This document shows positions 3,482 through 26,282 of a stretch of DNA of 64,000 bases, in pieces. The notes under the pieces are model-generated. The model ran no database searches and was not told where the DNA came from. It saw nothing but the letters and a program-made list of their open reading frames with translations. Source of the stretch: a virus. Its lineage: Duplodnaviria > Caudoviricetes. Made by a program: the position numbers and the translations under genes. The stretch is taken from positions 20,725 to 84,724 of IMG/VR virus record IMGVR_UViG_3300032004_000002; one strand, given 5' to 3'. Numbering within the stretch: the stretch's first letter is position 1; every line of letters begins with the position of its first letter.

Positions 3482-4927
3482 TTAAAGTCTAAATTCATTT
3501 ATCTTTGTGTACACAGGAACTGCGAATGCTGGTATAATCTTTCTTGTGTTGGCGGCTTCAAATGCGTCTGCACAAGCATCAAACATGTCATTGAACCCTA
3601 CCCTTGTATTTGAAGGATCTACACGCTCAAGTTCATCAAAAAAAGTATCATTATTTTGGTAAATTTTGTTTTCAAGATCGTTGGTACAACCTTTAACGAT
3701 ACTCACCATACCAGCTTGACAAGCCGCTCCAAACGGCCCGAATCTCTGAACCTTGCCTCCACGGCCGGCGACAGGCATTGCTTTTGCAGTTACATTATGA
3801 GAGACTAATGTTTTAATAATTTCAGCACAATAAGCAGATCCACCTACACCCGGATCTTTAGGGATATATTGTGTAACTTCAGGACCGTCCCTTAAAGAGG
3901 TTTCTAAAATCAGCTTCATCACATCGCCATGTCTTCCACGATAGCGGATAACGTCCTCGATTGTATATTCACCATCTTCACTGCGTGAAATAAGAACTGA
4001 CGCTGTGAAGTCAGGTCGAAGATTATTTTCCGATACAAGGCTGCAAGCTAAGTCCCATGCTCTAACACGAGTACATTTTTTAATCTGTGGGAAGTCCACA
4101 GTTCGCACCCATGTTCTTTGAAAAAGAGATGAGGATTCTTCTTTGGCATACCATGACCCGTCCAAAAGTCGAGCGCGTTCGACACGAGGAAGAGACTGAA
4201 GTTTGCTAAGGTATGTAGGATCGCGCTCCATAAGAACCGGATTATCTGTGCATTTAGCCGGTACAAATGCGAACGACATAGGGCCACAATTGACACCATA
4301 TTGTTCTATAAGTTCTTCTTTAGTTTTACGCCAGATCATGTCATTGCCCATGCGGACAAACCACATTTTAACACCTGCCATAGACTCTAGAGGAATTCCG
4401 TCTTCATCCAAATAGCCTGCATTTTCTAACCAAACACGAAGAAAGGACTCATAGAGGGGGTTACAGGTCCCAAGCATCTGAGGTTGCATCCCTGCATCTG
4501 TACGCATACGGGAGATAAAATAAACTACCTGAGATTCTTCAAACTGCTGCATTTCATCTAGGAGGAAAGCACTTACTTGCCAACCCTGTAGGTTGTATTT
4601 ATCTTTCTCTTGTTCACATCCTCGGGCTACAATAGTTGCTTTGGATGGGAACACAAACTTAACTTCTTTGGTCTTTGCTACTGCACCAAACTCATGATAC
4701 ATCTCTTGACCTGTTTCCCAGATACCTCCGGGACCAGTAATCTGCGGCATAACTCGCCGCATCATTACTCCACGAAACTTTGGAAGATGTACCCACTTGA
4801 GCATTGCCATAACGCCCAAAAATGATTTTCCTGCTCCGGCTGCTCCACCAAATACTACAATGTCTGCATCATTGTTTAAAAACATTTCTTGTTTGCGGCT
4901 TTTTGGGCCAAGGGTGCTATCAGACAT
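3482..4927 (-). CDS. terL: Terminase large subunit
   Basis: Walker A GGAAGAGKS, Walker B FLLDEMQQF, TCNP motif, RuvC-like AWDLA and C-terminal DMFDA. Confidence 0.95.
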   Translation of the reverse strand: MSDSTLGPKSRKQEMFLNNDADIVVFGGAAGAGKSFLGVMAMLKWVHLPKFRGVMMRRVMPQITGPGGIWETGQEMYHEFGAVAKTKEVKFVFPSKATIVARGCEQEKDKYNLQGWQVSAFLLDEMQQFEESQVVYFISRMRTDAGMQPQMLGTCNPLYESFLRVWLENAGYLDEDGIPLESMAGVKMWFVRMGNDMIWRKTKEELIEQYGVNCGPMSFAFVPAKCTDNPVLMERDPTYLSKLQSLPRVERARLLDGSWYAKEESSSLFQRTWVRTVDFPQIKKCTRVRAWDLACSLVSENNLRPDFTASVLISRSEDGEYTIEDVIRYRGRHGDVMKLILETSLRDGPEVTQYIPKDPGVGGSAYCAEIIKTLVSHNVTAKAMPVAGRGGKVQRFGPFGAACQAGMVSIVKGCTNDLENKIYQNNDTFFDELERVDPSNTRVGFNDMFDACADAFEAANTRKIIPAFAVPVYTKINEFRL

Positions 4928-4939
4928 TGTTTCTCCGGT

Positions 4940-5305
4940 TTAAGATTCTTCCTTTTCAAAAGTAAGGAGATATTCACGAATCATTTGTTGGCAATCTCGA
5001 CCTGTGACGCCTCGTTCTTTAACGATCGGTCTGAGTTCTTGAATGGTCAATGTTTCTAGGTACTCTTTACCATACTGAACTTCAATAGGCCAAACTCGCA
5101 AACCATTTGCCATATCGTCTTCAAGAAACTCTTCAGTCTCTACATAAAGCATGGCTTTATTAGGGAAAGTGTTTTTATTCGGATATTTAGTATCCAATTT
5201 ACCACCCATATTTGCAAATCGTACCACTTGATGTAGAAACATCATACCAGCAGCATCTGTAGCTTTAAGCTCAACATTATACTTATTCATATCTACTCTC
5301 TTCAA
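4940..5305 (-). CDS. Hypothetical protein with C-terminal Rho-N/SAP-like helices
   Basis: 121 aa, GAGAG-type RBS; LETLTIQELRPIVKERGV tail. Confidence 0.6.
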   Translation of the reverse strand: MKRVDMNKYNVELKATDAAGMMFLHQVVRFANMGGKLDTKYPNKNTFPNKAMLYVETEEFLEDDMANGLRVWPIEVQYGKEYLETLTIQELRPIVKERGVTGRDCQQMIREYLLTFEKEES

Positions 5306-5325
5306 TTAACTAACTTAATAAGAGA

Positions 5326-5354
5326 ATATTAACCTACAAGTTCTTATACGTCAA
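5326..5354 (-). promoter_or_regulatory. sigma70-like promoter upstream of the terL operon
   Basis: TTGACG-17-TAATAT on the minus strand. Confidence 0.55.
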
Positions 5355-5404
5355 GTATTATTTTAATAAAAATATATAAATCGATAAATAAAATAAATAG
5401 CCCT

Positions 5405-5464
5405 GTCATACACAACCGGGCATCAGTTGTAGGATGAGCTTCATACCTGAAGCCGTAGCATGAC
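5405..5464 (-). ncRNA. Candidate three-way-junction RNA element
   Basis: GTCATGC/GTATGAC closing stem enclosing GCTTCA-GGTA-TGAAGC and ACAACTG-ATGCC-CGGTTGT; G-U pairs work only on the minus strand. Confidence 0.5.
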
Positions 5465-5479
5465 TTACGTGATTTTACT

Positions 5480-6727
5480 TTACAAAAGAACTTCTTGCGA
5501 AGACTGGAATGTAAAGGTAGGTGTTCCTGTTACGTTAACAGTTCTCAGGCGTACATATTTGCCTGCCGGAATAATACCAGATAAGTTGGCTGTTCCTAGG
5601 TTTGTAATACTCAACACACCACCGGTTGATTGACCACTTGAACCAACAACTGTTACCCCGGTTGTAAATCCAATTTCGTTAGCATACTCAAGATAAACAC
5701 GTCCCGATGTGCCAGCGATTAATACGGCAGCAACAGTTATATCTACAGAATAACTTACCTGTGCATCTTGTGTAGAACTAATCTGAAATGCTGTGTTAAG
5801 TGTACGTGCCGGATTGGTAAATGTTCTTACCGGAGCACTGTAATTAGGAACATTCAATACACCAGTTGTGCTATTGTATGTTGCGGCCCCCGTTGTTCCC
5901 GTAGTAGTTAAACTTACAGAAGTTCTTGCTCCGGATTGAGTAATATAACTATTGGGGTTAGTAGTTCCGTTATATGGAGTATAGCCCAACGCTGTAGATA
6001 CTTGACTACTACTAATATTTGTCAGATAACCAGCGTCATTTGTAAATGCACTAACAGCAGTTGGAACTGTAGGGATAGCTGGGAATGTAGCCAAACTGCC
6101 ATCACCACGAAGATACTGAGTGGTAGTGCCTACAGGAGTATTAAACTTAGTAGAAAGACCGTTTGTCAATGCTGTTGTTGTAGCATATCCAGCAAGACTA
6201 GTACTCAACGCAGATTGACTCACAGCATCTGTGATCCCATAACCAGATACAGTTGTTGGTGTGGCTGTAATAGTTGACCAAGCTTGTGTATGGGCTGCGG
6301 GAGTAAAGGTGGAAGGTTTGTTGAGCAATACTCCTAAACCACTAACAGCATTCCAATCAGTCTGGACTTGAGCAGGGGGCGAAGGAACCTGAGAAAGGGT
6401 TATGTATCCAGCATCATTTGTAAGTTCGGAAACATTTTCAGGAATTTCAATTCCTAACATTCCCCTGATCATTTGCTCAGAATTAGATGCTATGATTTGT
6501 TGGGCTAGCGGACTGAATGTGAATGGCTTGAAATTTGAAGACGAGTCAGTGCCCATCAGTACAGAAGGTATCTTCATACTGGGGACTACAAATCCACTAC
6601 CTTCCATTTGGTTTGAGCTATTTTTATAGAACAACTCATTTACAGGCATTTCTGCAAGGAAGGTATCCAAACGAGGGTCGGTTACAGAACCACCACCTTT
6701 AACGGGTCTTTGGGGTCCAATAGCCAT
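5480..6727 (-). CDS. Fibre-like virion structural protein
   Basis: T/S/G-rich; fibre motifs QTDWN, NKPSTFTPAAH, QYLRGDG, LGYTP and repeated TNDAGY. Confidence 0.65.
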   Translation of the reverse strand: MAIGPQRPVKGGGSVTDPRLDTFLAEMPVNELFYKNSSNQMEGSGFVVPSMKIPSVLMGTDSSSNFKPFTFSPLAQQIIASNSEQMIRGMLGIEIPENVSELTNDAGYITLSQVPSPPAQVQTDWNAVSGLGVLLNKPSTFTPAAHTQAWSTITATPTTVSGYGITDAVSQSALSTSLAGYATTTALTNGLSTKFNTPVGTTTQYLRGDGSLATFPAIPTVPTAVSAFTNDAGYLTNISSSQVSTALGYTPYNGTTNPNSYITQSGARTSVSLTTTGTTGAATYNSTTGVLNVPNYSAPVRTFTNPARTLNTAFQISSTQDAQVSYSVDITVAAVLIAGTSGRVYLEYANEIGFTTGVTVVGSSGQSTGGVLSITNLGTANLSGIIPAGKYVRLRTVNVTGTPTFTFQSSQEVLL

Positions 6728-7005
6728 TATTGTTCACCATCATTAACCATGATCACTACACGTCCAGCAGACGTGCAACGAATCCAAACACCTGATAAAG
6801 TTCCATCAAGATAAACAGTAGCATTAGAGGCAACCGAATACCCATCTGTTGTGGTCACTGGGGTGCTTGGTCTCACTTGGATTAAAAATGGGGCCGTGAT
6901 CTTATTTTGAATAATAAGAGGTTGACCAACAGTAATACCGGTAGCAGAATAAATCTCTGTCCAAACACCGGCAACAAGTTGTAAATCAGGTAAAGTATTT
7001 GCCAC
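6727..7005 (-). CDS. Small putative virion protein
   Basis: 92 aa beta-rich ORF coupled to the fibre-like gene; AAAGGTG RBS. Confidence 0.55.
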   Translation of the reverse strand: MANTLPDLQLVAGVWTEIYSATGITVGQPLIIQNKITAPFLIQVRPSTPVTTTDGYSVASNATVYLDGTLSGVWIRCTSAGRVVIMVNDGEQ

Positions 7006-7020
7006 TTTAAAACACCTTTT

Positions 7021-7432
7021 ATTATTTTATTTAGAGGTGTCTTGTACTGAGGAATTATAGCCTATAGACAGACAGCATAGGCTTTTGGTTGGGCAGCCTC
7101 TCTGCTTTGAATCAACCGACCATACTTCATAAATGATTGGTTATAGTATAGTTGATTAGTCTCCCACGCTACCTTGGAACTAACCTCTGCCTCTACACAA
7201 TAAGAAGCTCTCACCACTGATCGTCTTTCCGATCTGCCATTTATTTGATCACCTCTTCATTTAAGCATAAACCTAAATGGTTAGAATTCCCCGATGGGTA
7301 TCAGCACAAAGGTGCATAACGGCTCTAACATCACCTACACGTCTTTCCGTAAGTGTCATTTACAACAGACCCCGCCAGAGGTCTTAAGGTGAGAACTAGG
7401 CAGCTCTCGATACCAGACCGCAGTCTGATTCT
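7021..7432 (-). ncRNA. Candidate ~400-nt highly structured RNA
   Basis: Contiguous hairpins and junctions with minus-strand G-U pairs; two CGGAAAGACG loops; no long ORF. Confidence 0.5.
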
Positions 7433-7852
7433 TTATTCACCATCATCTTCGTCATTAGGATCAATATATACTAGTGACAATCGAGGTTTACTTTGTTCTG
7501 CTACTTCTTCTACGGTTGGTTCATCAATTTCAGCTTCGTCCCTTTTCCCTTTAAGACGTGCTTGAAAGTTACCAAGCTCATCTTGAGATGCAGAACGAGT
7601 CATTGTGACAATTGCTGAAAGCAACCACTTAGCACTTGAGAGACTTTCTGAGTTAACTTCCATCTCATTAAGACTGCGATCAACCAAAGCAATTGCTACA
7701 TCTTCACGCTCTTGAAGTTTCTCGGCCAACTTACGAAGCTTGGATTTATTAACACGAACCTTACTATTTCCCTTCAAATTTTGGTTGGACTCTTCAGCAC
7801 CAAACCTATTCTTAGGGCTAGGATTTCTATTTGTAGTTTTCTTAGTAGTCAT
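7433..7852 (-). CDS. Putative terminase small subunit
   Basis: N-terminal RFG...GN basic motif (DUF5681-like), helical core and acidic tail; AGGT RBS; upstream of terL. Confidence 0.4.
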   Translation of the reverse strand: MTTKKTTNRNPSPKNRFGAEESNQNLKGNSKVRVNKSKLRKLAEKLQEREDVAIALVDRSLNEMEVNSESLSSAKWLLSAIVTMTRSASQDELGNFQARLKGKRDEAEIDEPTVEEVAEQSKPRLSLVYIDPNDEDDGE

Positions 7853-7877
7853 GAGATTACCTATTTGTAAATAATAT

Positions 7878-8068
7878 TTCTTAAATACACTCTATTACAG
7901 AATGTCTGTGTTCACTACGTGAGGAATGTATTTAAGAAAGCTCACTTATCACGGGAGAGAACATAATAAGTGAGCGAATAACCAAACAATCCGAAGAGGA
8001 GGAGAGAAAAGATTGTTTGGTTAGGAAGACAAAGCTATGTTATAGAATTTCTACTTAGGCTTTGTCGG
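7878..8068. repeat. Array of four long inverted repeats
   Basis: TTCTTAAATACA/TGTATTTAAGAA, GCTCACTTAT/ATAAGTGAGC, AACCAAACAATC/GATTGTTTGGTT, GACAAAGC/GCTTTGTC. Confidence 0.85.
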
Positions 8069-8074
8069 GAGAAA

Positions 8075-8160
8075 TGGTGGTTGAAGGAAGGAATTGAACC
8101 TCTAGCCTTGGCGCCGGATTTACAGTCCAGTGATAGTAGCCATCTATCTCTACATCAACC
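8075..8160 (-). tRNA. tRNA-Tyr (GUA), atypical
   Basis: Anticodon arm CTGGA-CTGTAAA-TCCGG, TTCAATT T-loop, long variable arm, encoded 3' CCA; acceptor appears 8 bp with a U-U mismatch. Confidence 0.8.
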
Positions 8161-8377
8161 AATAAATAATCCTAGCGTCTGCTAGGCTACGGCGAAGTAC
8201 TACACTACCTCTCGCCCTGTCTTGCTCCGTGATTATCTCCATGATAATTCTGCACCGAAGACTTTATGTTCACGTTAAACACTACAAGCCCTCAAGGGGA
8301 GACTCAATAAACTCCGTCAAGTTTAAGGAGTGGATTACCACTATCTACAACAAGGGGCTCAAAGGCCTATACACGAA

Positions 8378-8590: not shown

Positions 8591-8618
8591 ATTATAGCAC
8601 CTTTCTAACCATTGTCAA
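8591..8618 (-). promoter_or_regulatory. Strong sigma70 promoter for the tRNA/structured-RNA block
   Basis: TTGACA-16-TATAAT with extended -10 TG. Confidence 0.8.
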
Positions 8619-8856: not shown

Positions 8857-8886
8857 ACTATAAACGACACACAGTGTTTCTGTCAA
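8857..8886 (-). promoter_or_regulatory. sigma70 promoter
   Basis: TTGACA-18-TATAGT. Confidence 0.6.
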
Positions 8887-8897: not shown

Positions 8898-9182
8898 TTA
8901 AACTGTATTGTATCCACCAAATACAGAAGGAATACACCAATTATCTTTAATCATTTTCTGTTTCTTTGCATTCAATATCTTTTCTTCTGTCTTTAGTTTC
9001 TTACAGGAAATAGACTTCCACGGTTCGGGGCAACACCCTACACAGACACAAGAGTGCGGATTGAAATTAGGAAGGTATCGTTCTTTACTTCCGCACTCTA
9101 GACAACCACGTTTGATATTGAAATGATTAGTTTTACTTTTTACCGCTTCTGCAATCGTCATTGTTGGTAGTTCATTGTTCAT
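8898..9182 (-). CDS. Zinc-finger protein (CxxC-x16-CxxC)
   Basis: CLECGSKERYLPNFNPHSCVCVGC; ATGA overlap with the upstream polymerase-like gene. Confidence 0.65.
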   Translation of the reverse strand: MNNELPTMTIAEAVKSKTNHFNIKRGCLECGSKERYLPNFNPHSCVCVGCCPEPWKSISCKKLKTEEKILNAKKQKMIKDNWCIPSVFGGYNTV

Positions 9183-10540
9183 TTCTTATCAACCTTGCAA
9201 AAAGTTTTATCCCCTAGTACTGTTTCCCATGCTGCATACATGGCGTCTTCTAAATCTTTCTCAGCGCTAGCTTTAACCAAGCAACTGTCATGATAAGCTA
9301 ATACTGTATGCCCCTTGACCCCCATTGCACCAACAATACGCATCATGATCTTACTATCAATATTCTGCAACGTAATACCGGCATCAGAAAAGAAGTGCTC
9401 TGCAATAAAATCGTTATGACTTTGCACAGCCTCAAGTACTGCTGAATAATCTACATTACCAACCATTGCATAAAACTCTTGATCTTCAATACTATTTTGA
9501 GCACGATCAATCTTTACTTTATTACCAAGTGTCCAAGCTGCGCTGTTCTTATCATTAGAATTCATACCAATCAAAATAGCTAGCTTAGCTAACTGTCGTA
9601 CTGGATTGTGTGTTTTACCTGTCACACTTTCCCACTGTTCTTTCAAACGACCATCAACTTTAATAAACGAAAGGTCTGCATTGTAAGGAGAGAAGTCATC
9701 CCCCATCACATCATAAATACTAAAGCCATCTGTATTGTACATAAGCTGATAGCAGATGCTTGGGTGAATTGCTGAATAGTCCAACTCCACAACCGGTTCA
9801 CCGTCAATCTTCAGAGATGATGCACGCACATGTTGTGGAAGAAGCTGCACACCACCACCAAGAGTATAGAGACGTCCACCACTATCCAAATCCCCACTAA
9901 AGATACGGCGGTATGCAACATCAGCAATCGGACGATCATCGAAAGTAATAGATGCACCAGCCAGCATATCATTCATACTCTTAACCTCACCTTTGATGTC
10001 TTTAAATCCTTTATGACCCCGTGTTGGAATCATCTCTTTTGTCTCACGATTACGAATGATAGCTAGGTCATTATCTTCAAGCTCTTTCCATAGGTTGTAA
10101 TTTGTATTCACATCAGTCCACATGTCTGCTGTTCTCTTTTTAAATATCATACACGAAGGAATGGACTCATCTGGAATAAGACTTCCTTTGTGCATCTTCC
10201 AAGACTTCACATAGCCTTTATAAAGATCAATGTAACCCTTTGACTCAAGGAAGTCAACAAGAGATTTAATCTTTCTGTACCCAATACCTTGTCTTGACTT
10301 AGTGTAAGCATGTATATCAAGACTGAAGATAAAGCCACCAGCATTCTTCTTCACTGCACGAGCAGAGTTAGACACCCACCATCTTACTGCTTCTTCCCAT
10401 TTATAGTTGGTATGTTCTAATACCTGATCTACAATCTTCTTGTAGTACTTAGACTCATGGAAATAGATATAACTTCGTACACACCTTAGATTAACAGAGT
10501 AAGCTTGATGCTCTGTCATATTACTTAATTCATAGATCAA
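9179..10540 (-). CDS. Minimal family-A/T7-RNAP-superfamily polymerase (TV-Pol-like)
   Basis: GGRLY; motif A ELDYSAIHP; motif B RQLAKLAILIGMN; motif C YHDS; N-terminal wHTH-like segment; no exonuclease domain; AAGGAG RBS with TTG start. Confidence 0.7.
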   Translation of the reverse strand: MIYELSNMTEHQAYSVNLRCVRSYIYFHESKYYKKIVDQVLEHTNYKWEEAVRWWVSNSARAVKKNAGGFIFSLDIHAYTKSRQGIGYRKIKSLVDFLESKGYIDLYKGYVKSWKMHKGSLIPDESIPSCMIFKKRTADMWTDVNTNYNLWKELEDNDLAIIRNRETKEMIPTRGHKGFKDIKGEVKSMNDMLAGASITFDDRPIADVAYRRIFSGDLDSGGRLYTLGGGVQLLPQHVRASSLKIDGEPVVELDYSAIHPSICYQLMYNTDGFSIYDVMGDDFSPYNADLSFIKVDGRLKEQWESVTGKTHNPVRQLAKLAILIGMNSNDKNSAAWTLGNKVKIDRAQNSIEDQEFYAMVGNVDYSAVLEAVQSHNDFIAEHFFSDAGITLQNIDSKIMMRIVGAMGVKGHTVLAYHDSCLVKASAEKDLEDAMYAAWETVLGDKTFCKVDKK

Positions 10541-10769
10541 TCACTTATTCTCCTTGTTGTTGGTAGTAGAGGATAGAGAGGTGTTAGTAGATAGATGTAT
10601 TGTATTACATGTTCTCCTCTACAGCCCCCGGTTTATAAGGGTTTGTGCCCTTTCTACTCGGTACTTTCTCATAAATGCTCTCTAATTCATCTACTCAGTC
10701 TACACCCAATCCCACCCACGTCAACCCCCTCTCCAAAACAATTTATCCCACCCTCCTCAGAAAATACCC

Positions 10770-10798
10770 TTGACACCCTGTCTGGTAGAGCTTACTAT
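10770..10798 (+). promoter_or_regulatory. sigma70 promoter for the plus-strand small-ORF cluster
   Basis: TTGACA-17-TACTAT. Confidence 0.75.
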
Positions 10799-10853
10799 AG
10801 CTAAACACAACGAGGTAAGCATAGCTCTATCAGCGATTCACATATGAGGGGAT

Positions 10854-13800
10854 TTGAAGATGACATACGAAGAAATGTATAAGGATTGGAAGTATTTGTG
10901 GGACATTGCACCAGCAAATGATATGACTGGTGGTTATGTAGATCAAGATGACTTGAAACGAATGCTCAAAAGTCCATCCAAGGCCACAGCGAAGTATTGC
11001 CTTGAACGACAAATGGAATATTGGTTTCAGGCTGGCCCTGATGGGTTTGAAATTTGCAGGAACTATGAACATCTTTGTGAAGAGTATCCAAAAATTGAGC
11101 AGATCCGTAAGAAATATGATTTCAATGTAAGGGACTGGCTATGAAACAAATCCAAAACACCCCAAATGGCTGGATGGCCTACTGCTCAGCCATCAAAGAA
11201 TCTGTACAAAGAGACTTGACGAAGCGTGACTATAGTGTGATGATGGCTTCGTATATTGGAAGGGTTAGTGTGGATGAGTGTGTTAGTCAATTGGAGAATA
11301 AATAATGACACACATTAAATCAGATTGGCACGAAGGTCTGCTTTGGGCTGAAGATCTTTGTAAGGATGGAGAAGGTTGGGGAGCAGTGCCTGTGAAGATT
11401 ATGCTGTCCTATGTTGAAGATGCTTCTTGGAGTTTTGAAGATAGGGAATCTTTTATTGAAGGAGCATTCGATTATGCTGACCATATTTGGCACAGAGTTG
11501 AGGGGTAGATGATGAAACAGTGGAAGATTTATTTGATTGTTGCGATTATCTCCGGTTTTCTTGCAGGTGTGGTCAAATACAACGATGACTATATGGTGGA
11601 AAAAGACGTACATGTAACATTTATAGATAAAATGGAAAGAAATAGCTGCCACAAGTCAAATTGCACAGGTAAGTTGTACGGACTGTTCAAGACAGATGAT
11701 GGAATATTCTTTGACAGACAAATCAGCATGTATATGTACACACAAATGAAAGTAGGGGAAGACTTTAATCTAACTTTACGAAGGATGGACATTAAACAAA
11801 CAGGCTGGGATAATGTGATTTATTTCTTTGGTGTCATAACCATGTCTATATTTGTTGTCATGCTCATTGCCTCCCCTTTAGCGTATTTTGTTTTGGATAA
11901 GGAGGATAATTGATATGAGCACCCTACGAGTAATTGAACGTAAACACGGAAAACACAAGGCTTGCTAAGAAAGCTGTAGAAATATAGCTCAAATTAGCCT
12001 ATCAATCCCTTGTTTGATGCAAGAAATGATGTATAATTTCAACGTAAATTGAAAATGGAAGGCAGCACAAAGCTATAGGAATGTTGCCCTATTTTGATGT
12101 GATAAAATCAACGGTAATTTATTAGGAGAGAATTATGAATGTAGGTGAGCTGAAGAAAATGCTTGAGAAATATCCAGACGAGATGGAAATTTTGAATGGT
12201 CGGTACAGTGATTATGATTTGGTTGAGGAAAATGAGTGGCACATTGTTAAGGCAGTTCCTAAAGATGGTTATGTAATGCGCTCACATCCCACAATGAGCG
12301 AAGAGAACAAGAGTCAAGAAAAAGAATATCTTTACTTGGAAGGTAATTAAGATGAATAATCTCCCATTACTAAATGCAGAAGAACGTCAAGCACTCTTGG
12401 AAAAGGGTAGGCTTGCGAAGTTAGCCAAGAAAGAATTCGCCGAGGCTAATCTTAAATTGGACTATTCAGATGAGAATTATTGGACCACCAAATCAGCAGA
12501 GCTTGGTATTCGATTACCGCAGAAGTTTGCTGTAGGAGCAAAAGGTATTCGTAAGACAGCTAAAGCACTTGGTGTAGATATAAAAGAGTTCCTAGATTCA
12601 ACGGGCTGTAATAACTTGAATGAACTATGCGCGTTGAATCCGACTTGGAACTCAAGAGCACTTGCATCTTTAGTTGTGGAGTATTATCTTGACGTCCAAT
12701 AAGGAATATGTAATCATTCAAGCACTACTTAGTCTATTCGGTAAAGTGGACTTACAGACTCCAAAGGATGTGCAGATTATTAAAGAATTACATAAAATGC
12801 TTAAGGAGATTGAAGAATGAAACTAACCAGTAATCAAAAACAACTCAGCGTGTCAGTTCCAATGCTCATATTCTCTTTTATGGGGTTGTACTTGAGTTAC
12901 CCAGCAATTTCACTGTCTTTAGTGCTATGGTTCCCGTTTATTGCTGGGATGGGATGGACTTCTGCAATTCTTGTTATTCTTTTTAGTCAGTCAAAATTTG
13001 CAAAATGGCTTTTAAGGGATGACAAATGAACATCCAACAAATTGACTACATCAAAGCCCTCAACACAAAATATCCATCAGGAACGCTTCAATACATTCTC
13101 CTGCAAAACAATTTGCAATCAGCAACATTTGAGGGTACATTGAAGTGGCTGCTTGAAAGGTATGTTGAGCATGTTGAGGAATACAAGGCTGAGAATGCTA
13201 GGATGGCTTTAGCATTGAAGAAGAACAACTTATACACATCAGAGAATGTTTTAGGAGAGTAACAGTGACAGATTTTAATGAGCTTGTAGGGATTACAGTG
13301 AATAGCCTGATTATCAACGATGATAAGACATGTCTAGTGTTTCGAAGTAATGAGAATGTATTGTATTTCTATGAATCAGAGTTTGTAGAGATTCGTGGTG
13401 TAGATATGTTTGATGATAAATATGGGAACATTAATGGGTATGAGATTATTGGTACAGAATCTTTTGGTGATCATTACTTGATTAACTTTAGGGAAGATTA
13501 TTCATTGTCTGTCAAGAGTGGGACAGAGATTAAATGTGCAGGTGTGATCAATGAGAATGTGTTGAAAGATGCACATAAGTTTAGTCAATTGGTTGAGGAT
13601 TTTTAAACATGAGTCACATACTTCGTAATTCATTGTATGCGTTATATCGTAACGATCATGACATTCTGAATATGCTAGAGCAGCTGGATTTTAGCGAGCT
13701 TACTAGAAAATTTGATGACGAGCTGTACAGCCGTATGCCTAAAGAGCAAGTTAAGCTTGCCCAAGCAATGTTGACATGCGACACTCTGCTCAAATATGAT

Positions 13801-14108
13801 CTTGCTGTAGCAGAAAGTGCAGCAGCCTGTACACAAAAGATTGCTGAAATGATGAGTGTTCTTATTCTACCAACTACAGGGAAATCTAACTAATGGAATA
13901 CCATACAGAACTAGATTTTAATTGCAGCATACCAATGCCTAAAGTGAAACCCACAAAAGATCCTTGTATTGAGGAGAATGCTATTAAGGAGATTATGAGC
14001 TTAGCCCTATTTGGCGCTGCACAAAAGAATATTGAAGAGGGTAAACCAATATTTGACTCTGTGGAAAAAGTTGTTCAACTATTTAAAGATGCTGGCCTTA
14101 TCAAATAA
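10854..14108 (+). other. Cluster of ~11 small co-oriented hypothetical genes (10854-11144, 11141-11305, 11305-11508, 11509-11913, 12135-12350, 12352-12702, 12817-13029, 13026-13262, 13265-13606, 13609-13893, 13893-14108)
   Basis: Tightly packed, GGAG/GAGG RBSs, overlapping start/stop codons; 11509 and 12817 carry TM helices. Confidence 0.75.
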
Positions 14109-14109
14109 C

Positions 14110-14137
14110 TTGACACCAAGCCAACATAACGTATAAT
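14110..14137 (+). promoter_or_regulatory. sigma70 promoter
   Basis: TTGACA-16-TATAAT. Confidence 0.75.
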
Positions 14138-14157
14138 CAATTTTAAGGAGAATAAAT

Positions 14158-14556
14158 ATGACAGATAAAGTGGTTTATGAAGATGTATTGACAAGTTTGG
14201 GAGCTTTGCACACAGCTAGCAACAATCTTAATGATGCTGTAGCCTTGACTCCAAACGGAATTGAAATGGATAGTGAGCTGGATGGTCTTGTTATCACTAT
14301 GCAACAAATCTCTACATGGGCACAGAATAATATTAACCAAATCAATCAGGAGCAAGTTTTGAATGATTTTCTAGCCAGCCTTAAAACTTTGATGCTTGAA
14401 TATTCTGCAAGTTTTGAGATTGGTAGTACTAGTGCAGGATATGGGGTTAGCTATGGGGAAGGTGAGGCTAGTGGGATTAGAGTGACGGTGGAAAAGGACG
14501 GCGTGGTGAGTAGTCGGGTGTTTGAAGGGAATAGTTTGACAAGTGATGATCTTTGA
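14158..14556 (+). CDS. Hypothetical protein
   Basis: 132 aa, AAGGAG RBS, first gene after the promoter. Confidence 0.7.
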   Translation: MTDKVVYEDVLTSLGALHTASNNLNDAVALTPNGIEMDSELDGLVITMQQISTWAQNNINQINQEQVLNDFLASLKTLMLEYSASFEIGSTSAGYGVSYGEGEASGIRVTVEKDGVVSSRVFEGNSLTSDDL

Positions 14557-14577
14557 TTAATTAAGTGAGGCAACAAC

Positions 14578-15324
14578 ATGGCAAAAAGGAATCAGGCACA
14601 AGTAGTTGAAAATCGTTGGGACAAGAAAGCTGAAGTTGGCCGTGTCCTTAAACCTAAGTTCCAAGATGAAAGCTATATTGCAACACCGGTTACTGCCAAG
14701 ACAGAAGTACAGAAACAGTTCCTACAGGCACTGAAAGAGTATGACGTCATTGTATTCTCAGCGCCAGCTGGCGTAGGTAAAAGCTACCTTGCAATGAGTG
14801 AAGTGTCTGATTGGCTTAAGAAAGGAATCTATGATAAGATTACTCTCTCACGTGCAGTGATTCCAATGGGTCGTAGTCTGGGCATGCTTCCTAACAACCT
14901 GCAACAAAAGTTTGAACCTTTTCTGATGCCATTGCTGGAAGTGTTGTGGAAGCGGTATGGTAAGAGCTACTACGAAAACTGTCTTGCTCTCGGTACAATT
15001 GAGTTGCTTGCACCCGAGTACGCACGCGGTCGGTCTATCTCAGATATTTGCGTGATAGATGAGGTGCAATGTATGGCGCCCGATGAGCTTTATACAATGC
15101 TTACTCGAATGGAACAAGGTGCTAAACTGATTCTCATCGGAGATGGTACTGGTCACCAAACGGATATCAAAGGTGTAAATGGTATTGAGTGGTTGACTAA
15201 GTTTGTAGAAAACAATGTATCACTTCAGAAACACATTAAAGTAATCACAGCAACTAGCGAAGATATTGTTCGTGGCGGTTTGTGTAAAGCAATGGTGCAG
15301 GCTAAAGAGAAGGAGAGTAAATAA
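14578..15324 (+). CDS. phoH: PhoH-like ATPase
   Basis: APAGVGKS Walker A, GMLP, RGRS, IDEVQ, TRM, IGDG..Q.D motifs. Confidence 0.95.
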   Translation: MAKRNQAQVVENRWDKKAEVGRVLKPKFQDESYIATPVTAKTEVQKQFLQALKEYDVIVFSAPAGVGKSYLAMSEVSDWLKKGIYDKITLSRAVIPMGRSLGMLPNNLQQKFEPFLMPLLEVLWKRYGKSYYENCLALGTIELLAPEYARGRSISDICVIDEVQCMAPDELYTMLTRMEQGAKLILIGDGTGHQTDIKGVNGIEWLTKFVENNVSLQKHIKVITATSEDIVRGGLCKAMVQAKEKESK

Positions 15325-16088
15325 TGAAGCACGAAGAACTAATGATTATGCCCCAAAAGAGTCGTATCACTCAAAGCTCTCAAGTTGCAAACACCTATGT
15401 GATTAAAGTGTGGGAAGATATTGGTGACCCAAATGAATGGACTGAAGAACTGGATATCATTAATGGTGCCTCTGAAATTGATACCGTAGTATTAGATATT
15501 TGCTCAGGCGGGGGCGTAATGGATACTGCAATGCTTTTTAATCGAGCGTTGCGAAGCTGTCAAGCACATACTGTAGCTATCATTGGACCAACAGCAGCCT
15601 CAGCAGCCTCCGTATTTGCTCTTTCTTGTAAAGAGTTTATTTTGGATGAAACCTCTAGTCTAATGATCCATACAAGTTCTTATGGAATTGTTGCTAAGGA
15701 CACAGACATCTTTGAACATGCCAACTTCTCACGTCGTCAATTGAAGACATTGTACGAGAGTGTGTATAGTGGATTTTTGAGCGAAAATGAGCTTTCTGAT
15801 GTAATTAAGGGGACACCGTTCTACTTTGATGCTAACGATCTTGAAGTACGTTTGGATAGTTTGGAGGAATACCGTAAAAATCTTCCATGTCCTTGTGGCG
15901 ATCCGCTGTGTGGACAATCTCCAGAAGAAGGTGAGGAATTTGATCTTGAAGCCCTGATCGACGATAAAGTTGCCGAAGCTATCAAAGCCTACGACAAAAG
16001 TAAGTTGCAAAAGGAAGCTAAAGCTCGTAAACTAGCCGAGAAGAAAGTAAAGCCAGTTGTTGTGTTTGAAGAACCTGTAAAAGAATAA
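15324..16088 (+). CDS. clpP: ClpP-like (S14) protease
   Basis: ICSGGG oxyanion region, AASAAS nucleophile Ser, LMIH catalytic His. Confidence 0.8.
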   Translation: MKHEELMIMPQKSRITQSSQVANTYVIKVWEDIGDPNEWTEELDIINGASEIDTVVLDICSGGGVMDTAMLFNRALRSCQAHTVAIIGPTAASAASVFALSCKEFILDETSSLMIHTSSYGIVAKDTDIFEHANFSRRQLKTLYESVYSGFLSENELSDVIKGTPFYFDANDLEVRLDSLEEYRKNLPCPCGDPLCGQSPEEGEEFDLEALIDDKVAEAIKAYDKSKLQKEAKARKLAEKKVKPVVVFEEPVKE

Positions 16089-16132
16089 TCTTATTAGCAC
16101 AAGGATGTGCTCGCTTTAAAGGGGAGAGATTT

Positions 16133-16435
16133 ATGAGTAAAGAAAAAGAGATTGAAGCAGTGACTATCTCCTATGAGGATTTTATTGCTTATGACCACCT
16201 ACCAATTGGGAATTATTATTTCAAGAATGCAATGGGTGAAATAATTTATTTGAAAACAAGTTCTGCACAATTAGCTCAAGAATGGATCGACAACTATTCA
16301 GGAGTGAAAGGGAAGTACAAAGCGATTCCATCCAAGACTTTTAAGGGGAAGAGTCGTAGGGAAGATGGGGGTTACTCGGCTTCGGGTAGTAACACACGGC
16401 GGGGATTCGCGCCACAACTTAAGAAAACAAACTAG
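16133..16435 (+). CDS. Hypothetical protein
   Basis: 100 aa, GGGGAG RBS. Confidence 0.7.
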   Translation: MSKEKEIEAVTISYEDFIAYDHLPIGNYYFKNAMGEIIYLKTSSAQLAQEWIDNYSGVKGKYKAIPSKTFKGKSRREDGGYSASGSNTRRGFAPQLKKTN

Positions 16436-16444
16436 GAGAGAAGA

Positions 16445-17350
16445 ATGAATGTTTTAAGTCTATTTGATGGTATGTCCGTAGGTATGATTGCTTTACAAAA
16501 GGCTAATGTTAAGGTGACTAATTACTATGCATCTGAAATTGATAAACATGCAATCAAGGTAAGTCAATACAATTATCCAGGAATTGTCCGAATTGGTGAT
16601 GTAACTAAAGTATCCTACAAGAGTGGGGTGTTGACTACAGAGATGGGAGAATTTAAAGTAGGAGTTATTGATCTTCTAATCGGAGGAAGCCCTTGTCAAG
16701 ATTTCAGTACAGCCAAAGCTTTTGGTGAACACGGTACAACCCCGCAAGGATTGAATGGGTCTAAGAGTGGCTTGTTCTACCACTATTTGCGAATTAAAAA
16801 AGAAATTGAGGAATATAACCCAAAACTAAAGTTTTTACTTGAAAACGTTAAAATGAAAAAAGAGAGTAAGAAACAATTAGATGATTACCTCGGTGTTGAG
16901 GGTATTTATATTAACTCTGAGCTTGTAAGCTTTCAAAAACGTCCTCGTTACTATTGGTCAAACCTTTCTTTTGTGGCGCCAGAAAATCAATATGTGTCTT
17001 TTCAAGACTATAAAGAAATTGGTGACTTGGCTAAATACAAGTTGAACCCAACTCCATCTAGGATTCGTATGTGGGGAGATGGTAAAGGTACTAACGGTGT
17101 TCAATCTTGTGCTAACGTAACGTATGCAGATAAAGTGTATTGCCTAACAACAAAGCAAGATCGTTGCCCTAACAGTGGATTAGTTGAGTATGAAGACTTT
17201 TGCAGATACTTGACACAAAAAGAATTAGAACTCGCACAAACCGTTCCAATCGGTTACACTTCTTGTCTCAGTTATAATCAAGCATGTGCAGTACTTGGTA
17301 ATGGTTGGACTGTAGATGTTATTACACACATTTTTAGTAGTTTAAACTAG
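16445..17350 (+). CDS. DNA (cytosine-5)-methyltransferase
   Basis: Motif I SLFDG, motif IV GGSPCQ, motif VI ENV, motif VIII QKRPR, motif X LGNGW. Confidence 0.92.
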   Translation: MNVLSLFDGMSVGMIALQKANVKVTNYYASEIDKHAIKVSQYNYPGIVRIGDVTKVSYKSGVLTTEMGEFKVGVIDLLIGGSPCQDFSTAKAFGEHGTTPQGLNGSKSGLFYHYLRIKKEIEEYNPKLKFLLENVKMKKESKKQLDDYLGVEGIYINSELVSFQKRPRYYWSNLSFVAPENQYVSFQDYKEIGDLAKYKLNPTPSRIRMWGDGKGTNGVQSCANVTYADKVYCLTTKQDRCPNSGLVEYEDFCRYLTQKELELAQTVPIGYTSCLSYNQACAVLGNGWTVDVITHIFSSLN

Positions 17351-17359
17351 GAGAAAATA

Positions 17360-17503
17360 ATGCTACAATACGTATTCACAGATTACCTTGATCTTTCAGC
17401 TTCAGACCACTACGCTCTAGCTCAAATCCTTGACCAACACACTGAAACAAATGATTATGAAGAAGAAGAATATGACTACTTCTCACTCTCAACGGAGGCT
17501 TAA
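17360..17503 (+). CDS. 47-aa acidic protein (absent from ORF track)
   Basis: AGGAG RBS; MLQYVFTDYLDLS...NDYEEEEYDYFSLSTEA. Confidence 0.6.
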   Translation: MLQYVFTDYLDLSASDHYALAQILDQHTETNDYEEEEYDYFSLSTEA

Positions 17504-17504
17504 A

Positions 17505-17759
17505 ATGAAATTTTGTAAGATGCTAATGAATCAAAAAGATATCCACAATGGTCATTTCCAAATGCAAGTGAATCGCATGTCTGTGAAGAAAGCTATTAAG
17601 CTCTGCAAGAAGCTTGAAGCATACACTAAAGACAAATACATGTTCTATGTACAAGTGTTCACCGACAATAGCTGGACAATCTATCAGGCCGGATACTTTC
17701 CAGATCGTCAAGGGAATCTGGCTGATCGGATGATTTTGAGTTCGGATAATCTCCAATGA
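17505..17759 (+). CDS. Hypothetical protein
   Basis: Start re-assigned to MKFCKM after a GGAGG RBS. Confidence 0.6.
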   Translation: MKFCKMLMNQKDIHNGHFQMQVNRMSVKKAIKLCKKLEAYTKDKYMFYVQVFTDNSWTIYQAGYFPDRQGNLADRMILSSDNLQ

Positions 17760-18166
17760 AAAGTAAAGAGTACAAACTTTACGCCGATATGTGTTCTCGT
17801 GTAGCTGAATGCTCTGATGCTGAACGTAAGAAGGTGGGAAGTGTTCTAATTACACCAGATGATGTACTTCTGATCGGATTTAACGGAACCCCTAGCGGAT
17901 TTGACAACAAGTGTGAAGATGAGCAAGGCCATACGCTCAGTCATGTTTTGCACTCAGAATCCAATGCGATTATGAAAGCTACACGAGCAGGGGTAAGCCT
18001 TAAAGGAAGTACATTATTTTGCTCACTGAGTCCTTGCCAACAATGTAGTAACCTTATTGTGCAAGCCGGTATCAAGAAGGTTGTTTACAAGGAAGAATAT
18101 CGGGACACATCACCATTGATCTTTCTTATTAAAGCATCTGTGATAGTAGAAAAGTACAATCAATGA
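17756..18166 (+). CDS. dCMP deaminase
   Basis: GFNG, HSE and SPCQQC zinc-binding motifs. Confidence 0.92.
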   Translation: MKSKEYKLYADMCSRVAECSDAERKKVGSVLITPDDVLLIGFNGTPSGFDNKCEDEQGHTLSHVLHSESNAIMKATRAGVSLKGSTLFCSLSPCQQCSNLIVQAGIKKVVYKEEYRDTSPLIFLIKASVIVEKYNQ

Positions 18167-18248
18167 TTCTGTTTACAAAGCCAGCATCTTAAGCCATAAT
18201 TGGTCCTAGATAGCTGGCTATTTTTATATCTGAAACTAGGAGAAACAC

Positions 18249-21200
18249 ATGACACACTATAAAGCTGATAGTACAAACGATTTGGCAGATACATTTGCAA
18301 TCCAATTGAAATCTCTTTGGTCTTTTGCAAACTATCTTGGCTACGAGTTTACATCTCTTGGGATAGACGGAGCGAAACCAAATTCTTTCTTCTATTCTGG
18401 ATACAAGAAGGATGTTCCGTTTAAGTCTTGCGAAGTGATTAATTTTATGACAATGGTCAAGCTGCATAATACTTCTTGGGTACACAGCTCCCGCTACGCG
18501 GGACATCTATTTCCATACCCTGGAGGCGTACACACAGCTACAACGGGACAACCTTTGCGACTAGACTCAAATTCTCCATTTCATGTGGATGCTTATACGC
18601 TTAATAAAGCTCAAGCGGCAAAGATCGTCACTCAAGTGTATCTAAACGGTGGTAAAGGCGGTGTGAGTTGCTATCGTGATCTAGTGAAATTTGTAGATCC
18701 TGTGTATGAACAGCTTTTCTTGAGTCCAATAATTGAGCAAACAAAAGAGAGTCAAGACTACGTTGCAAAACATATCTCAAATCTTTATGAGGAGTAATAA
18801 AATGTTTAAATGGCTTAAAGATTGGTGGCAAGAGTGCGAACAACACAATACAGACCTACATTTTAAGTGTGATGTACCAATGCCTGAAGTGAAGCCTTGT
18901 AAGGGGAGTAATATATCAGAGCCTGTCCATGCAATGCTGAAAGCTTGGAAAGATAACCCAAAACGGTTTAAATTGAGCTTGGATAAGAGCATTACCAGTT
19001 TGTGGAGCGATTCTATTAAATTTAAATACCACTCGTATTACAGCAATCCAGAAACAGAACTTACTATAACAGATAGGGAGGGTAAAGAAACTTTTCGCTT
19101 TACCTTGTCCCTAACTTCTGGATCGTGTGCAGATGGATACAAGCTTGGATATTATAAATTTATAAGTTTTGCAAACCATCGGATTTATCCGGTACTAGGC
19201 TCTAGTGTCATATCTAAACCTGCGTGGATGACAGACGACGAAATGGACTACATCATCAAAACTGTAACACCTTACTATCTGAAACGTGTGAATCGTTACC
19301 GGGATATCATAGAATCTCGTATGGACCGCTCACGTAAGGCTAGTGAATTGAAATCAGAAATTACCAAACAGAAAGAACGCCAACGTTTGTGTGAGATTTA
19401 CAAATGACAGACATTACCAACACAGAAGAGTTTGAACAAATCCCAGAAGAGCTTATCGACCGAATTCAAGCAATTCGGGACAAGGCCACTGAGAACATTC
19501 ACAAGGAAGCAGAGCAAAATGCGATAGACGGTGATTATATTCCTGTGAATCAGAGACAAAGGATCTTTACAAGTCTTCAAGACATGCTATCCTATATTCA
19601 AGTGTTTAAGATTGAGAGTGCAAGTTTTCAATCAGGATATCAAAGGATGGAAGATGGTAGTACAGGCAGTAAGAAGATTTATCAAATTACACATCATTGT
19701 GTTAATGATTGAGGAGAAGAGAAATGAAAGATTTGAATGTACCAGAACGATACACGTGTGAAGATGCTACAGAACAGGATAAAAATATTTATACATATTA
19801 CAAAGAGGTACTTGCTAAACTGTCCGAGGATGTCGATCCTTGTGTAATTGACATGTATGGTAATATTATCTGGAAAGGCAAGAAGGGAGATGTGTTCGAT
19901 ATTAGTACACTCTCTAAGAGGGTTAAATAATGGACGCACAGTCGCAACTTAAAGCTCTACAACAAATCCTAGACACTTTGCACATCGCATCGTCCAGGCA
20001 AACAGACGAATCGTTCCGTAAAGATGGTAATAAACACTTCACAACAGCTATTCAGAACACAAAGAAGCTTATGAAAGAACTAGAATTGGAACAAACATTC
20101 AATCTGAATCTAGAAGCCAAAGATTTTAGTGATCTTTATGGACATAGTTTGGGTTTGAGTAATATTTAATAGGAGATACTATCATGGCTAAAGAAAAGAT
20201 TTTACCAATGCTTAATTCCGAGCGTAAAGAGCTTCTTGATAAAATCCAAAAACTCAAACAAGAGAAAGATGCGCTGTATGCAGCCACTCTTAGACGTGTG
20301 AATGGGATCGTGGTGACTGCACCATATCTGTCAACAGAGGCTAAGACAATGTTGTTGGAATCTATTTGGAGTGAAAAAGTATGAGCGGCTATTTCGTAGG
20401 ACTAATTGTCTGGTGGAGTCTTGTCATTATCTGCCTAACGTATATCTACTTTGAAGGAGAAGAATAGTATGTTTATATTCACGTATTTATCTATTGCTGT
20501 GTTAGTGATGTATGTAACGGCTGTTGGTTGTTATGTATGCAAGAAGAAATTCAACTTAATCACTAATGCTATTGCAGCTATCCTCTGGCCCTTGGCCATT
20601 CCTATCACTATCTATGAAGTGCTGCACGAAACAAAGGATTATCCACTGTGAAAATAATCAAAACAAGAATTGATGGACTAAAACGTATATATTATCTGCA
20701 AGAGAATGGACAAAAGCTCAATGATATCCGCTTTATCCAATATGCAGATGATACAGGGATTTACACAGTGAACAAAAAGGATGGGGATTATTTCACATTC
20801 CTCCCTCCCAATAATTCTTACATGAGCTTGGCTAAGATTATTGAAAAAGGATACGTTGTTCTGCTGATAGACTAACAATAATGTAATATCACCCTAGACT
20901 TGTGTCTAGAAGGCTACAACACATGAAAATCTTAATGAAAACGTCTATTTTGATGCTGATTTTAACCCAAGGATGTGGTGTAACGAATGTAAAGCAGCCA
21001 ACGTATTTATCTTCTAAACAAGAGGCTTGGAAGAGTGAAATCCTTGGGAAATGTGTAGACAAGGCTCATGAATTGACGTATCTTGTATGGCAAGACAATA
21101 AATTTCTAGATGTTGAGCAACTGACTTATATAGAAAAGCGTTTTCAAGATAAATGTGTTGTACAAAATAATTTGGCTATTTGATCAGGAGAATGATGATG

Positions 21201-24328: not shown

Positions 24329-24363
24329 TTAAGCCGGTATAATATATAGAGGGAATTGTAAAG

Positions 24364-25518: not shown

Positions 25519-25529
25519 TAACCACCATT

Positions 25530-25555
25530 GCCCCTCAAATGAGGGGCTTTTCTTT
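25530..25555 (+). terminator. Rho-independent terminator
   Basis: GCCCCTC-AAAT-GAGGGGC followed by TTTTCTTT. Confidence 0.85.
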
Positions 25556-26275: not shown

Positions 26276-26282
26276 ATGGTTC

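Follow-up and report, generated by a model that had tools for sequence, protein, structure and literature searches.

A large phage protein family that joins a winged helix to a minimal family-A polymerase core: candidate early primase-polymerases

Introduction

Why would a phage that already encodes a replicative PolA and a primase carry a second, minimal polymerase? The question is raised by P0001, a 453-amino-acid (aa) open reading frame (ORF) in a 64,000-nucleotide stretch of DNA from a virus of the Caudoviricetes (hereafter the window), which makes up the last 64 kb of the 84,724-bp IMG/VR virus record IMGVR_UViG_3300032004_000002. The original prediction, made from the sequence and a list of its ORFs, described P0001 as a minimal, TV-Pol-like member of the superfamily that includes PolA and the RNA polymerase (RNAP) of phage T7. 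It proposed either a dedicated primer-synthesizing enzyme or a small RNAP that might use neighbouring hairpins as promoters or templates. The computational analysis reported here indicates that P0001 is very probably an active, templated polymerase of the family-A fold, expressed early, lacking a dedicated partner and acting neither as the bulk replicase nor as a general transcriptase of the T7 style. As to its role, we tentatively favour, with a probability of about 0.4, an early and site-directed primase-polymerase, which would initiate or restart the synthesis of nucleic-acid chains on phage DNA.

Single-subunit RNAPs of the T7 type can start chains de novo, and they serve to prime replication both in mitochondria and at the T7 origin. 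The TV-Pols were defined by a minimal thumb, a beta-hairpin arginine, a palm with two aspartates and fingers with an RxxxK motif, and their primase-polymerase activity was predicted from fusions to D5 helicases and from recombinase-linked elements (PMC2579912; Iyer, Abhiman and Aravind 2008). CcPol of SCCmec, acting with its partner MP, a protein of the oligonucleotide-binding (OB) fold, is a DNA primase that uses deoxynucleoside triphosphates (dNTPs; Bebel et al. 2020, PMC7581432; Rice 2023, PMC10061031). Without MP, CcPol merely extends primers; it prefers dNTPs and retains both of the residues by which Pol I discriminates against ribonucleotides (PMC7581432). The earlier remark that TV-Pol activity is not established is therefore outdated for this one member, CcPol-MP (PMC7581432).

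A complete polymerase active site on a minimal scaffold

P0001 lies on the minus strand, which the original prediction did not state, and comprises the following parts, listed with the evidence that locates each.

9179..10540, minus strand: minimal family-A-like polymerase gene (P0001), 453 aa (ORF and translation, homologues, AlphaFold2 model)
10142..10453, minus strand: N-terminal winged-helix region, aa ~30-133, with structural matches over aa 38-150 (DSSP, VIA-align)
9182..10093, minus strand: polymerase core, aa ~150-453, with reduced thumb, palm and minimal fingers (structural alignment)
9863..9886, minus strand: beta-hairpin motif DSGGRLYT, with G222 and R223 invariant (equals the primer-terminus arginine of PolA 'TGRLSS')
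9758..9793, minus strand: motif A, VVELDYSAIHPS, with catalytic D254, invariant E252 and H259 (hidden Markov model (HMM) alignment to Taq LVALDYSQIELR)
9557..9604, minus strand: motif B or O-helix, PVRQLAKLAILIGMNS, with R315 and K319 (family column counts)
9278..9307, minus strand: motif C, TVLAYHDSCL, with H417 and catalytic D418 (family column counts)

The ORF opens with a TTG at 10540, closes with a stop codon at 9179-9181 and has an AAGGAG 9 nt 5' of its start. Relatives start at the same position, one of them with GTG rather than TTG, and the gene is single-copy in the genome. Judged by its sequence matches, whose strength lies far beyond chance, the ORF is a real gene. A search of a set of 5.8 billion proteins found 150 homologues (best E 6e-284), mostly 430-460 aa long and without Pfam domains, and an exhaustive search scored 3,101 representative clusters at 50% identity with E<=1e-3. 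The family is present in 244 annotated phage records, nearly always as 'hypothetical' and often as two paralogues, the hosts being Vibrio (whose phages include ICP1), Rheinheimera (the Barba phages), Aeromonas, Pseudoalteromonas and Shewanella. Pfam, NCBIfam and PADLOC gave zero matches to the polymerase, even at an E of 1; its match in PHROGs is phrog_4756, of 'unknown function' (E 4e-79), its matches in the ESM Atlas are to unnamed clusters only, and tblastn found no match to it among plasmids. No fused, helicase-bearing forms were found among longer proteins, which is weak evidence since that search covered 1058-3020 aa only. The paralogues of Aeromonas phage 2L372X (MK813938.1), at 10377-11642 (profile E 1e-81) and 74625-75977 (2.5e-111), are diverged and are both embedded in runs of small hypothetical ORFs of early type; two family loci are also seen in several Vibrio and Pseudoalteromonas phages.

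All four motifs on which the original prediction relied are present: GGRLY (aa 221-225), DYSAIHP (within ELDYSAIHP, aa 252-260), R..AK (RQLAK, aa 315-319) and HD (within YHDS, aa 416-419). Across 42 diverse members of the family, N190, G222, R223, R239, E252, D254, Y286, K319, H417 and D418 are invariant, while H259, P260, R315, D395, S396 and S419 are kept in at least 90% (H259 in 39/42, R315 in 41/42 and S419 in 39/42; N327 is kept in 37/42). The HMM alignment to Taq places H259 on the steric-gate Glu of PolA, spacing from K319 places L323 and N327 at the PolA Phe and Tyr positions, and S419 occupies a position that is Glu in PolA and Ser in T7 RNAP.

An AlphaFold2 model built with the family alignment as input reached a predicted local distance difference test score (pLDDT) of 93.4 and a predicted template-modelling score (pTM) of 0.88. 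It consists of a winged helix and a polymerase core only, with no exonuclease domain, in keeping with the earlier observation that exonuclease and T7-RNAP N-terminal domains are both missing. The top matches of Foldseek in the PDB were all family-A DNA polymerases (E 2e-6 to 1e-4, probability 1.0), among them apicoplast Pol, Aquifex Pol I, T7 gp5, Bst, Klenow and Pol nu. VIA-align, a structural aligner independent of Foldseek, aligned the core (aa 153-453) to Aquifex Pol I, Pol nu, T7 RNAP and others, with Z scores of 13.3 for apicoplast Pol, 12.8 for Aquifex Pol I, 12.1 for yeast mitochondrial RNAP, 11.4 for Klenow, 10.9 for T7 RNAP, 7.8 for N4 mini-vRNAP and 6.2 for N4 RNAPII. As both classes reach Z 11-13, the DNA and RNA polymerases of the superfamily are tied as structural matches.

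The winged helix-turn-helix-like region suspected at the N terminus was recovered in the model, where aa ~38-150 match winged-helix proteins (Nse, CodY, MarR, Crp and Z-beta) at Z 4.6-5.9. DSSP assigns the region a helix-helix-helix-wing pattern, and by profile it weakly matches TrmB (E 0.02). Where PolA has long thumb helices, DSSP finds short helices only (135-140, 152-157 and 179-193). The strand of motif A spans 248-255 and motif C 414-423, with zero strands between aa 255 and 414; since there is no beta-hairpin between motifs A and C, a T7-type specificity loop is absent from the model. With a two-Asp palm, an RxxxK O-helix and a beta-hairpin Arg all in place, and with the palm aspartates D254 and D418 invariant in 42/42 members, the modelled protein is a minimal member of the PolA/T7-RNAP superfamily, as had been proposed and as the AlphaFold model with its Foldseek and VIA-align comparisons now supports.

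Placement within the superfamily

Profile comparisons by hhalign took Microcystis phage Ma-LMM01 as their sole TV-Pol lineage. The family profile finds one ORF in this phage, MAP_030 (BAF36121, 506 aa), which adjoins two transposase genes and, to judge from these neighbours, is probably the Ma-LMM01 TV-Pol of Iyer et al. The family aligned to the single MAP_030 sequence with E 9e-5 and to a six-sequence MAP_030 profile with E 5.6e-5 (probability 66%; 163 collinear columns, which cover the hairpin to motif C), whereas the same comparison gave E 0.28 over 14 columns for T7 RNAP and E 0.32 for the window's PolA. Moreover, a His at D+5 of motif A, an Asn at K+8 of motif B and GGGxQ after the hairpin are common to the family and MAP_030 and are not shared by PolA or T7 RNAP. 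Because of these scores and shared derived residues we accept 'TV-Pol-like' as the best placement, a reasonable one with moderate statistical support and a label to be read loosely. In BFVD, the TV-Pol-helicase of the virophage Zamilon ranks below many PolAs (E 1.8e-4 versus 1e-7). Against Taq the family profile reached only E 2.6, yet the alignment spans exactly motif 2 through motif A, pairing TGRLSS with GGRLY, NLQNIP with VQLLP, then an Arg, and LVALDYSQIELR with VVELDYSAIHP.

P0001 and MAP_030 are alike in having a minimal, nuclease-free core resembling PolA and T7 RNAP, with the hairpin Arg, two Asp and RxxxK, and in the length of the N-terminal part, which puts the hairpin at about residue 220-230. 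TV-Pols differ in their all-helical TV-PolN, in place of which P0001 has an alpha/beta winged helix, and perhaps in a thumb formed by a two-helix antiparallel coiled coil, which is not obvious here, where DSSP finds short helices only. They differ also in being fused to, or neighboured by, a D5-like helicase and linked to a resolvase, integrase or transposase, none of which was found at the family's loci; the present family instead resides in large virulent phages that already own a full replisome. The TV-Pol-like part of the original prediction is thus modestly supported by the profile match to MAP_030, whereas the contexts that define TV-Pols (D5 helicase, recombinase, single-stranded-DNA-binding (SSB) partner) are missing.

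CcPol-MP, which is counted among the TV-Pols, likewise has a catalytic domain of the A family, is encoded on a mobile or viral genome and lacks a zinc finger. Next to it lie MP, then a helicase and serine recombinases, none of which was found beside the P0001 gene. CcPol is also recognizably annotated as a PolA, whereas P0001 has no Pfam match, and it keeps the ribonucleotide-excluding residues where P0001 has His and Asn (H259 and N327), with L323 at the Phe position.

The T7-like RNAPs and N4 RNAPII share with P0001 the superfamily fold, an HDS motif C and a GRxY hairpin. P0001 is half their size or less, and their promoter-binding N-terminal domain, intercalating hairpin and specificity loop are all absent from its model; there is no sequence-level match to them and no repeated promoter in this genome. 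The PolA proteins (Klenow, Taq, T7 gp5 and apicoplast Pol) are the best structural matches, and motif 2, the 'QxxP' element and 'LDYSxI' of motif A align directly. They differ in having 3'-5' and 5'-3' exonuclease domains, of which P0001 has none, while its thumb is reduced, its fingers are shortened, and the steric-gate Glu, O-helix Tyr and motif C Glu of PolA are replaced by His, Asn and Ser. The family lies below the detection threshold of Pfam DNA_pol_A. P0001 is thus best placed in a deep TV-Pol-like branch of the PolA/T7-RNAP superfamily, fused to a winged helix and without a partner.

Early expression and proximity to an origin in ICP1

The homologue in Vibrio phage ICP1 is ORF100 (ICP12006E_102), which lies at 58,951-60,618 in ICP1_2006_E and at 56,043-57,710 in the CRISPR-deleted (engineered) reference. 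It covers nearly the full family profile and has an extra N-terminal extension. Its RNA-seq reads, 1-2 before infection, reach ~13,000-33,000 in the first infected sample and are still high in the next one, with transcription from 4 min (PMC7567579 supplement); this jump marks ORF100 as an early or middle-early gene. The bidirectional (theta) origin of ICP1 was seen as a peak in 8-min DNA-seq coverage 'near the 60 kb position' (PMC7145576), in work that used the same deleted ICP1 and came from the same laboratory as the RNA-seq, and ORF100 lies within a few kb of this origin. A review of ICP1 lists no predicted RNA polymerase and gives the replisome as PolA (Gp58) and a gp4-type helicase-primase (Gp57) (PMC9040626). 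PolA and a primase-helicase co-occur with a family member in the window phage, ICP1, the Barba phages and 2L372X.

Promoter, leader and allele exchange

Two elements lie upstream of the polymerase gene.

10694..10724, minus strand: sigma-70-like promoter of the polymerase gene (TTGACG, 16-nt spacer, TAGACT)
10556..10672, minus strand: conserved 5' leader of the polymerase gene (alignments of 8 and 17 relatives)

The TTGAC box of the promoter (10720-10724) is conserved in relatives. The leader holds the 16-mer AGAAAGTACCGAGTAG (10654-10669), which is invariant in all alleles at >=76% identity, an ACCC-N9-GGG..TGTAG element (10619-10643) and AATACA (10596-10601); it ends in a 40-nt G-free tract that runs up to the ribosome-binding site. 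ACCC-N9-11-GGG..T(G)TAG and AATACA are recognizable down to alleles at 35-50% protein identity, and the leader block is more conserved than the polymerase protein itself. In the related contigs L008-L011 and L020-L036 the leader motif lies ~60-170 nt upstream of the homologous gene. The leader is single-copy: there is one in the window, one in each close relative and one in the whole genome. RNAalifold found zero consensus pairs in it, and a hand-drawn CCC/GGG stem of 3-5 bp is too weak to be put forward. The leader may serve as an operator, as an element of translational control or as the target of the enzyme itself.

Comparison with contig L011 indicates how the gene is inherited. The two DNAs are 99.5% identical over 4411-8074 of the window and 91% over 12361-14628, and window 9352-10713, which holds most of the polymerase gene and ~170 bp upstream, has no detectable nucleotide similarity to L011 5000-6190, the polymerase proteins being ~47% identical. 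L011 has a different leader and a different ORF downstream of the polymerase, and in it the tRNA-like segment (8075-8162) is replaced by ~390 nt of other sequence. From these alignments, the polymerase gene and its upstream leader move as one cassette between near-identical phages.

Genomic neighbourhood

The surroundings of the polymerase gene and the replication set hold the following features.

8898..9182, minus strand: 94-aa Cys-rich ORF, overlapping the polymerase stop by 4 nt (translation)
8857-8886, minus strand: sigma-70 promoter TTGACA-18-TATAGT, 11/12
8591-8618, minus strand: sigma-70 promoter TTGACA-16-TATAAT with extended TG, 12/12
8079-8159, minus strand: tRNA-like element (Rfam tRNA 28.8 bits, gathering score 29; no call by ARAGORN)
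44100-45827, plus strand: gp4-type primase-helicase (phrog_239)
46511-48946: PolA

The presence of a PolA and a gp4-type primase elsewhere in the phage was confirmed, this replication set lying 34-36 kb from P0001. The primase-helicase has no N-terminal Cys4 zinc finger, and its Toprim acidic motifs (EGEEE and DSD) are intact; ICP1 Gp57 (ICP1_2006_E 21.7-23.8 kb, L068) is likewise without a finger, and the homologue in Aeromonas phage 2L372X has one. The phage also encodes an exonuclease, a ribonucleotide reductase (RNR), a ThyX-like protein, a nucleotide kinase and a nucleotidyltransferase. Genes resembling HNH or NUMOD4 homing endonucleases lie at 45831-46502, 53245-53799 and 24364-25518 (all plus strand), one of them inserted between the genes for the primase-helicase and PolA. 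At exactly 127 bp, the record's 'direct terminal repeat' (1-127 and 84598-84724) looks like the k-mer overlap that an assembler typically leaves on a circular or circularly permuted genome rather than a biological terminal repeat. The sequencing runs listed as containing the sequence are DNA runs from rhizosphere and soil metagenomes, of which one may be its source, and none is an RNA run.

P0001 heads a 31-kb minus-strand arm, which a plus-strand early block faces across a 310-bp junction. The arm runs from the polymerase through the Cys-rich ORF, the tRNA-like element, an ORF-poor stretch and a fibre-like gene to the terminase, portal and structural genes. The same layout is found in relatives with 35%- and 28%-identical polymerases and in the Barba phages, where the family gene lies 3 kb upstream of the primase and DNA polymerase. 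To find conserved neighbours we clustered all ORFs within 6 kb across 45 loci. No neighbour was common beyond closest kin, the best being a PhoH-like gene, divergent and 3 kb off, in 13 loci; and the Pfam-annotated neighbourhoods contained PhoH, terminase, HNH and a sigma-70-family gene instead of any helicase, SSB or recombinase. In contig L006, whose polymerase is 28% identical, a gene for a Sigma70_r2 protein (7058-7723, minus strand) adjoins the polymerase gene divergently, a sign that phages of this group may redirect host RNA polymerase.

The Cys-rich ORF has no PHROG or NCBIfam match, and the ORF that overlaps the polymerase gene downstream encodes a different protein in 7/7 relatives (unrelated in L003, L006 and L008-L011); on this comparison the slot holds variable cargo rather than a conserved partner. 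A zinc-finger subunit for template recognition, encoded at 8898-9182, was rejected because the ORF in this slot is unrelated in every relative and has no family match.

The gene does point toward the tRNA and structured block, as had been noted, with the tRNA-like element at 8079-8159 also on the minus strand; this element is 87% identical to a stretch annotated as tRNA-Val in Pseudomonas phage PhiPA3. The proposal that P0001 finds its promoters or templates in the hairpins or tRNA block next to it is not supported. Two near-perfect sigma-70 promoters point into the block, which is therefore probably a strong, independent early transcription unit; it is not a conserved neighbour; and a stretch of it has stayed 99.5% identical in a relative with which the polymerase allele shares no more than ~47% identity. 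We accordingly reject the hairpin, tRNA or non-coding-RNA block as a cognate template or promoter in the sense of a conserved association, and since the neighbours are unconserved and the block has promoters of its own, neither a 'polymerase plus RNA module' nor a 'Zn-finger subunit' is supported.

Discussion

A role as the bulk replicase is improbable because PolA and a primase-helicase co-occur with the family and because the thumb is reduced. The tentatively favoured reading makes P0001 an extra enzyme beside both. Host RNA polymerase would transcribe its gene early from the gene's own sigma-70-type promoter, through the conserved leader. The winged helix would then position the enzyme on phage DNA, where the palm would make a short primer in a site-directed synthesis of low processivity, and the replicative PolA and helicase would take over this primer, for example at a theta replication origin. 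We favour such a primase-polymerase because the lineage includes predicted (TV-Pol) and proven (CcPol-MP) primase-polymerases, because a presumed DNA-targeting winged helix is joined to a core of low predicted processivity, and because the ICP1 homologue is expressed early and lies near the origin. Inheritance as a cassette with an upstream cis element, as for cassettes of an initiator and its site, and constant co-occurrence with a replisome able to take over a primer point the same way.

Several points weigh against this role. CcPol needs an SSB-like partner to prime, and there is no conserved partner here; the family gene never adjoins a helicase, nor was a helicase fusion found; and the phage's own Toprim primase has its acidic motifs intact. 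The occurrence of two paralogues in accessory regions of small ORFs, together with allele exchange, fits an arms-race or accessory function equally well. The ICP1 origin was mapped at ~1-kb bins and is loosely described, so that its offset to ORF100 may be 2-4 kb. In the window phage, the cumulative GC-skew minimum falls at the divergent junction that holds the polymerase gene, but it is not counted as an origin marker since the skew follows the coding strand, and so the direction of transcription, throughout. A mini-polymerase that compensates for a primase without a zinc finger, by analogy with Twinkle and POLRMT, fails as an explanation because the 2L372X primase has its finger. Finally, we found no published study of any member of this phage clade.

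Some of these points suit a different enzyme, a primer-dependent, exonuclease-less DNA polymerase for repair, gap filling, bypass of lesions or modified bases, or counter-defence, which would start no chains. We give this a lesser but appreciable chance. Every one of the solved folds that Foldseek ranks closest is a DNA polymerase, motifs 2 and A resemble those of PolA, and CcPol without its partner only extends primers (PMC7581432), as P0001, which has no partner, might also do. The gene sits among small early accessory ORFs, often as two paralogues, its alleles are exchanged between near-identical phages, as often happens with genes of host-phage conflict, and the phage is rich in nucleotide-metabolism genes (ThyX-like, RNR, nucleotide kinase and nucleotidyltransferase). 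However, a PolA that has an N-terminal region of its own is already present in the phage, and the winged-helix fusion and gene-specific leader would be left unexplained. The loss of residues for fidelity and sugar selection (Tyr to Asn and Glu to His) would be odd in a polymerase that makes only DNA, and there is neither a PADLOC or other defence match nor a consistent neighbour that hints at a repair pathway. Those same substitutions suit a miniature single-subunit, DNA-dependent RNAP whose winged helix reads one or more phage promoters and which transcribes a subset of genes, such as the 31-kb structural arm: the ribonucleotide-excluding residues of PolA are replaced by H259 and, in the O-helix, N327, whereas the dNTP-preferring CcPol keeps them (PMC7581432). 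In structure P0001 resembles mitochondrial RNAP (Z 12.1) and T7 RNAP (Z 10.9) no less strongly than it does DNA polymerases, motif C reads HDS, as in T7 RNAP, not HDE, and GRxY resembles the 'RGRVY' of T7. The gene is the first of the structural or terminase arm here and in the 35%- and 28%-identical relatives, ICP1 has no predicted RNAP and so leaves the niche open (PMC9040626), and early expression is what one expects of a phage RNAP gene.

Such an RNAP is nevertheless unlikely in our estimate. No 12-mer occurs four or more times in the 84.7-kb genome, only two 14-mers occur three times, all of them elsewhere, and the leader motif occurs once; since one relative combines a 47% allele with a downstream arm that is 99.5% identical, any cognate promoters would need to sit in the swapped cassette. 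In the model, motifs B and C are not separated by a specificity-loop hairpin and a T7-type N-terminal domain is missing, the stretch running from motif 2 to motif A resembles PolA (LQNIP versus VQLLP, DYSxI), there is no sequence match to T7 RNAP (E 0.28) and no Pfam RNA_pol match (E<=1), and the reduced thumb argues against processive synthesis across tens of kb. The sigma-70-family gene beside the polymerase of at least one relative further suggests that late genes use host RNAP. Less probable still is that P0001 makes a non-genomic product (short oligonucleotides, a decoy or a template-independent tail) for early takeover or anti-defence, or that it is mainly a DNA-binding regulator. Early expression in ICP1 among small genes of takeover type, the variable neighbourhood and allele swapping would fit such functions, and the invariant E252, N190 and Y286, which have no PolA counterpart, hint at altered chemistry. 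Against this, R223, R239, R315, K319 and H417, which make the template and primer contacts of PolA, are all kept, which argues for ordinary templated synthesis, and nothing speaks positively for a specific product or target; a role as a regulator alone is unlikely because both catalytic Asp are invariant in 42/42 members.

Whichever role is right, this is a large family (>3,000 clusters at 50% identity) that has no Pfam or NCBIfam model and yet a complete polymerase active site, and it deserves a name and a profile. With His in place of Glu and Asn in place of Tyr, it offers natural experiments on sugar selection, and ICP1 provides a genetically tractable model in which the function of ORF100 is directly testable. 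Should the protein prove, against our expectation, to be an RNAP or an RNA-primer synthase, it would be the smallest known single-subunit enzyme of that kind with the T7/PolA fold, at 450 aa and guided by a winged helix, and large virulent phages like ICP1 would own a rifampicin-insensitive chain-starting activity despite their presumed dependence on host RNAP. If P0001 and its relatives do start chains, they would represent a second solution to priming with the family-A fold after CcPol-MP, this one free of a partner, and would offer a minimal scaffold for learning what separates primases, DNA polymerases and RNA polymerases within the superfamily.

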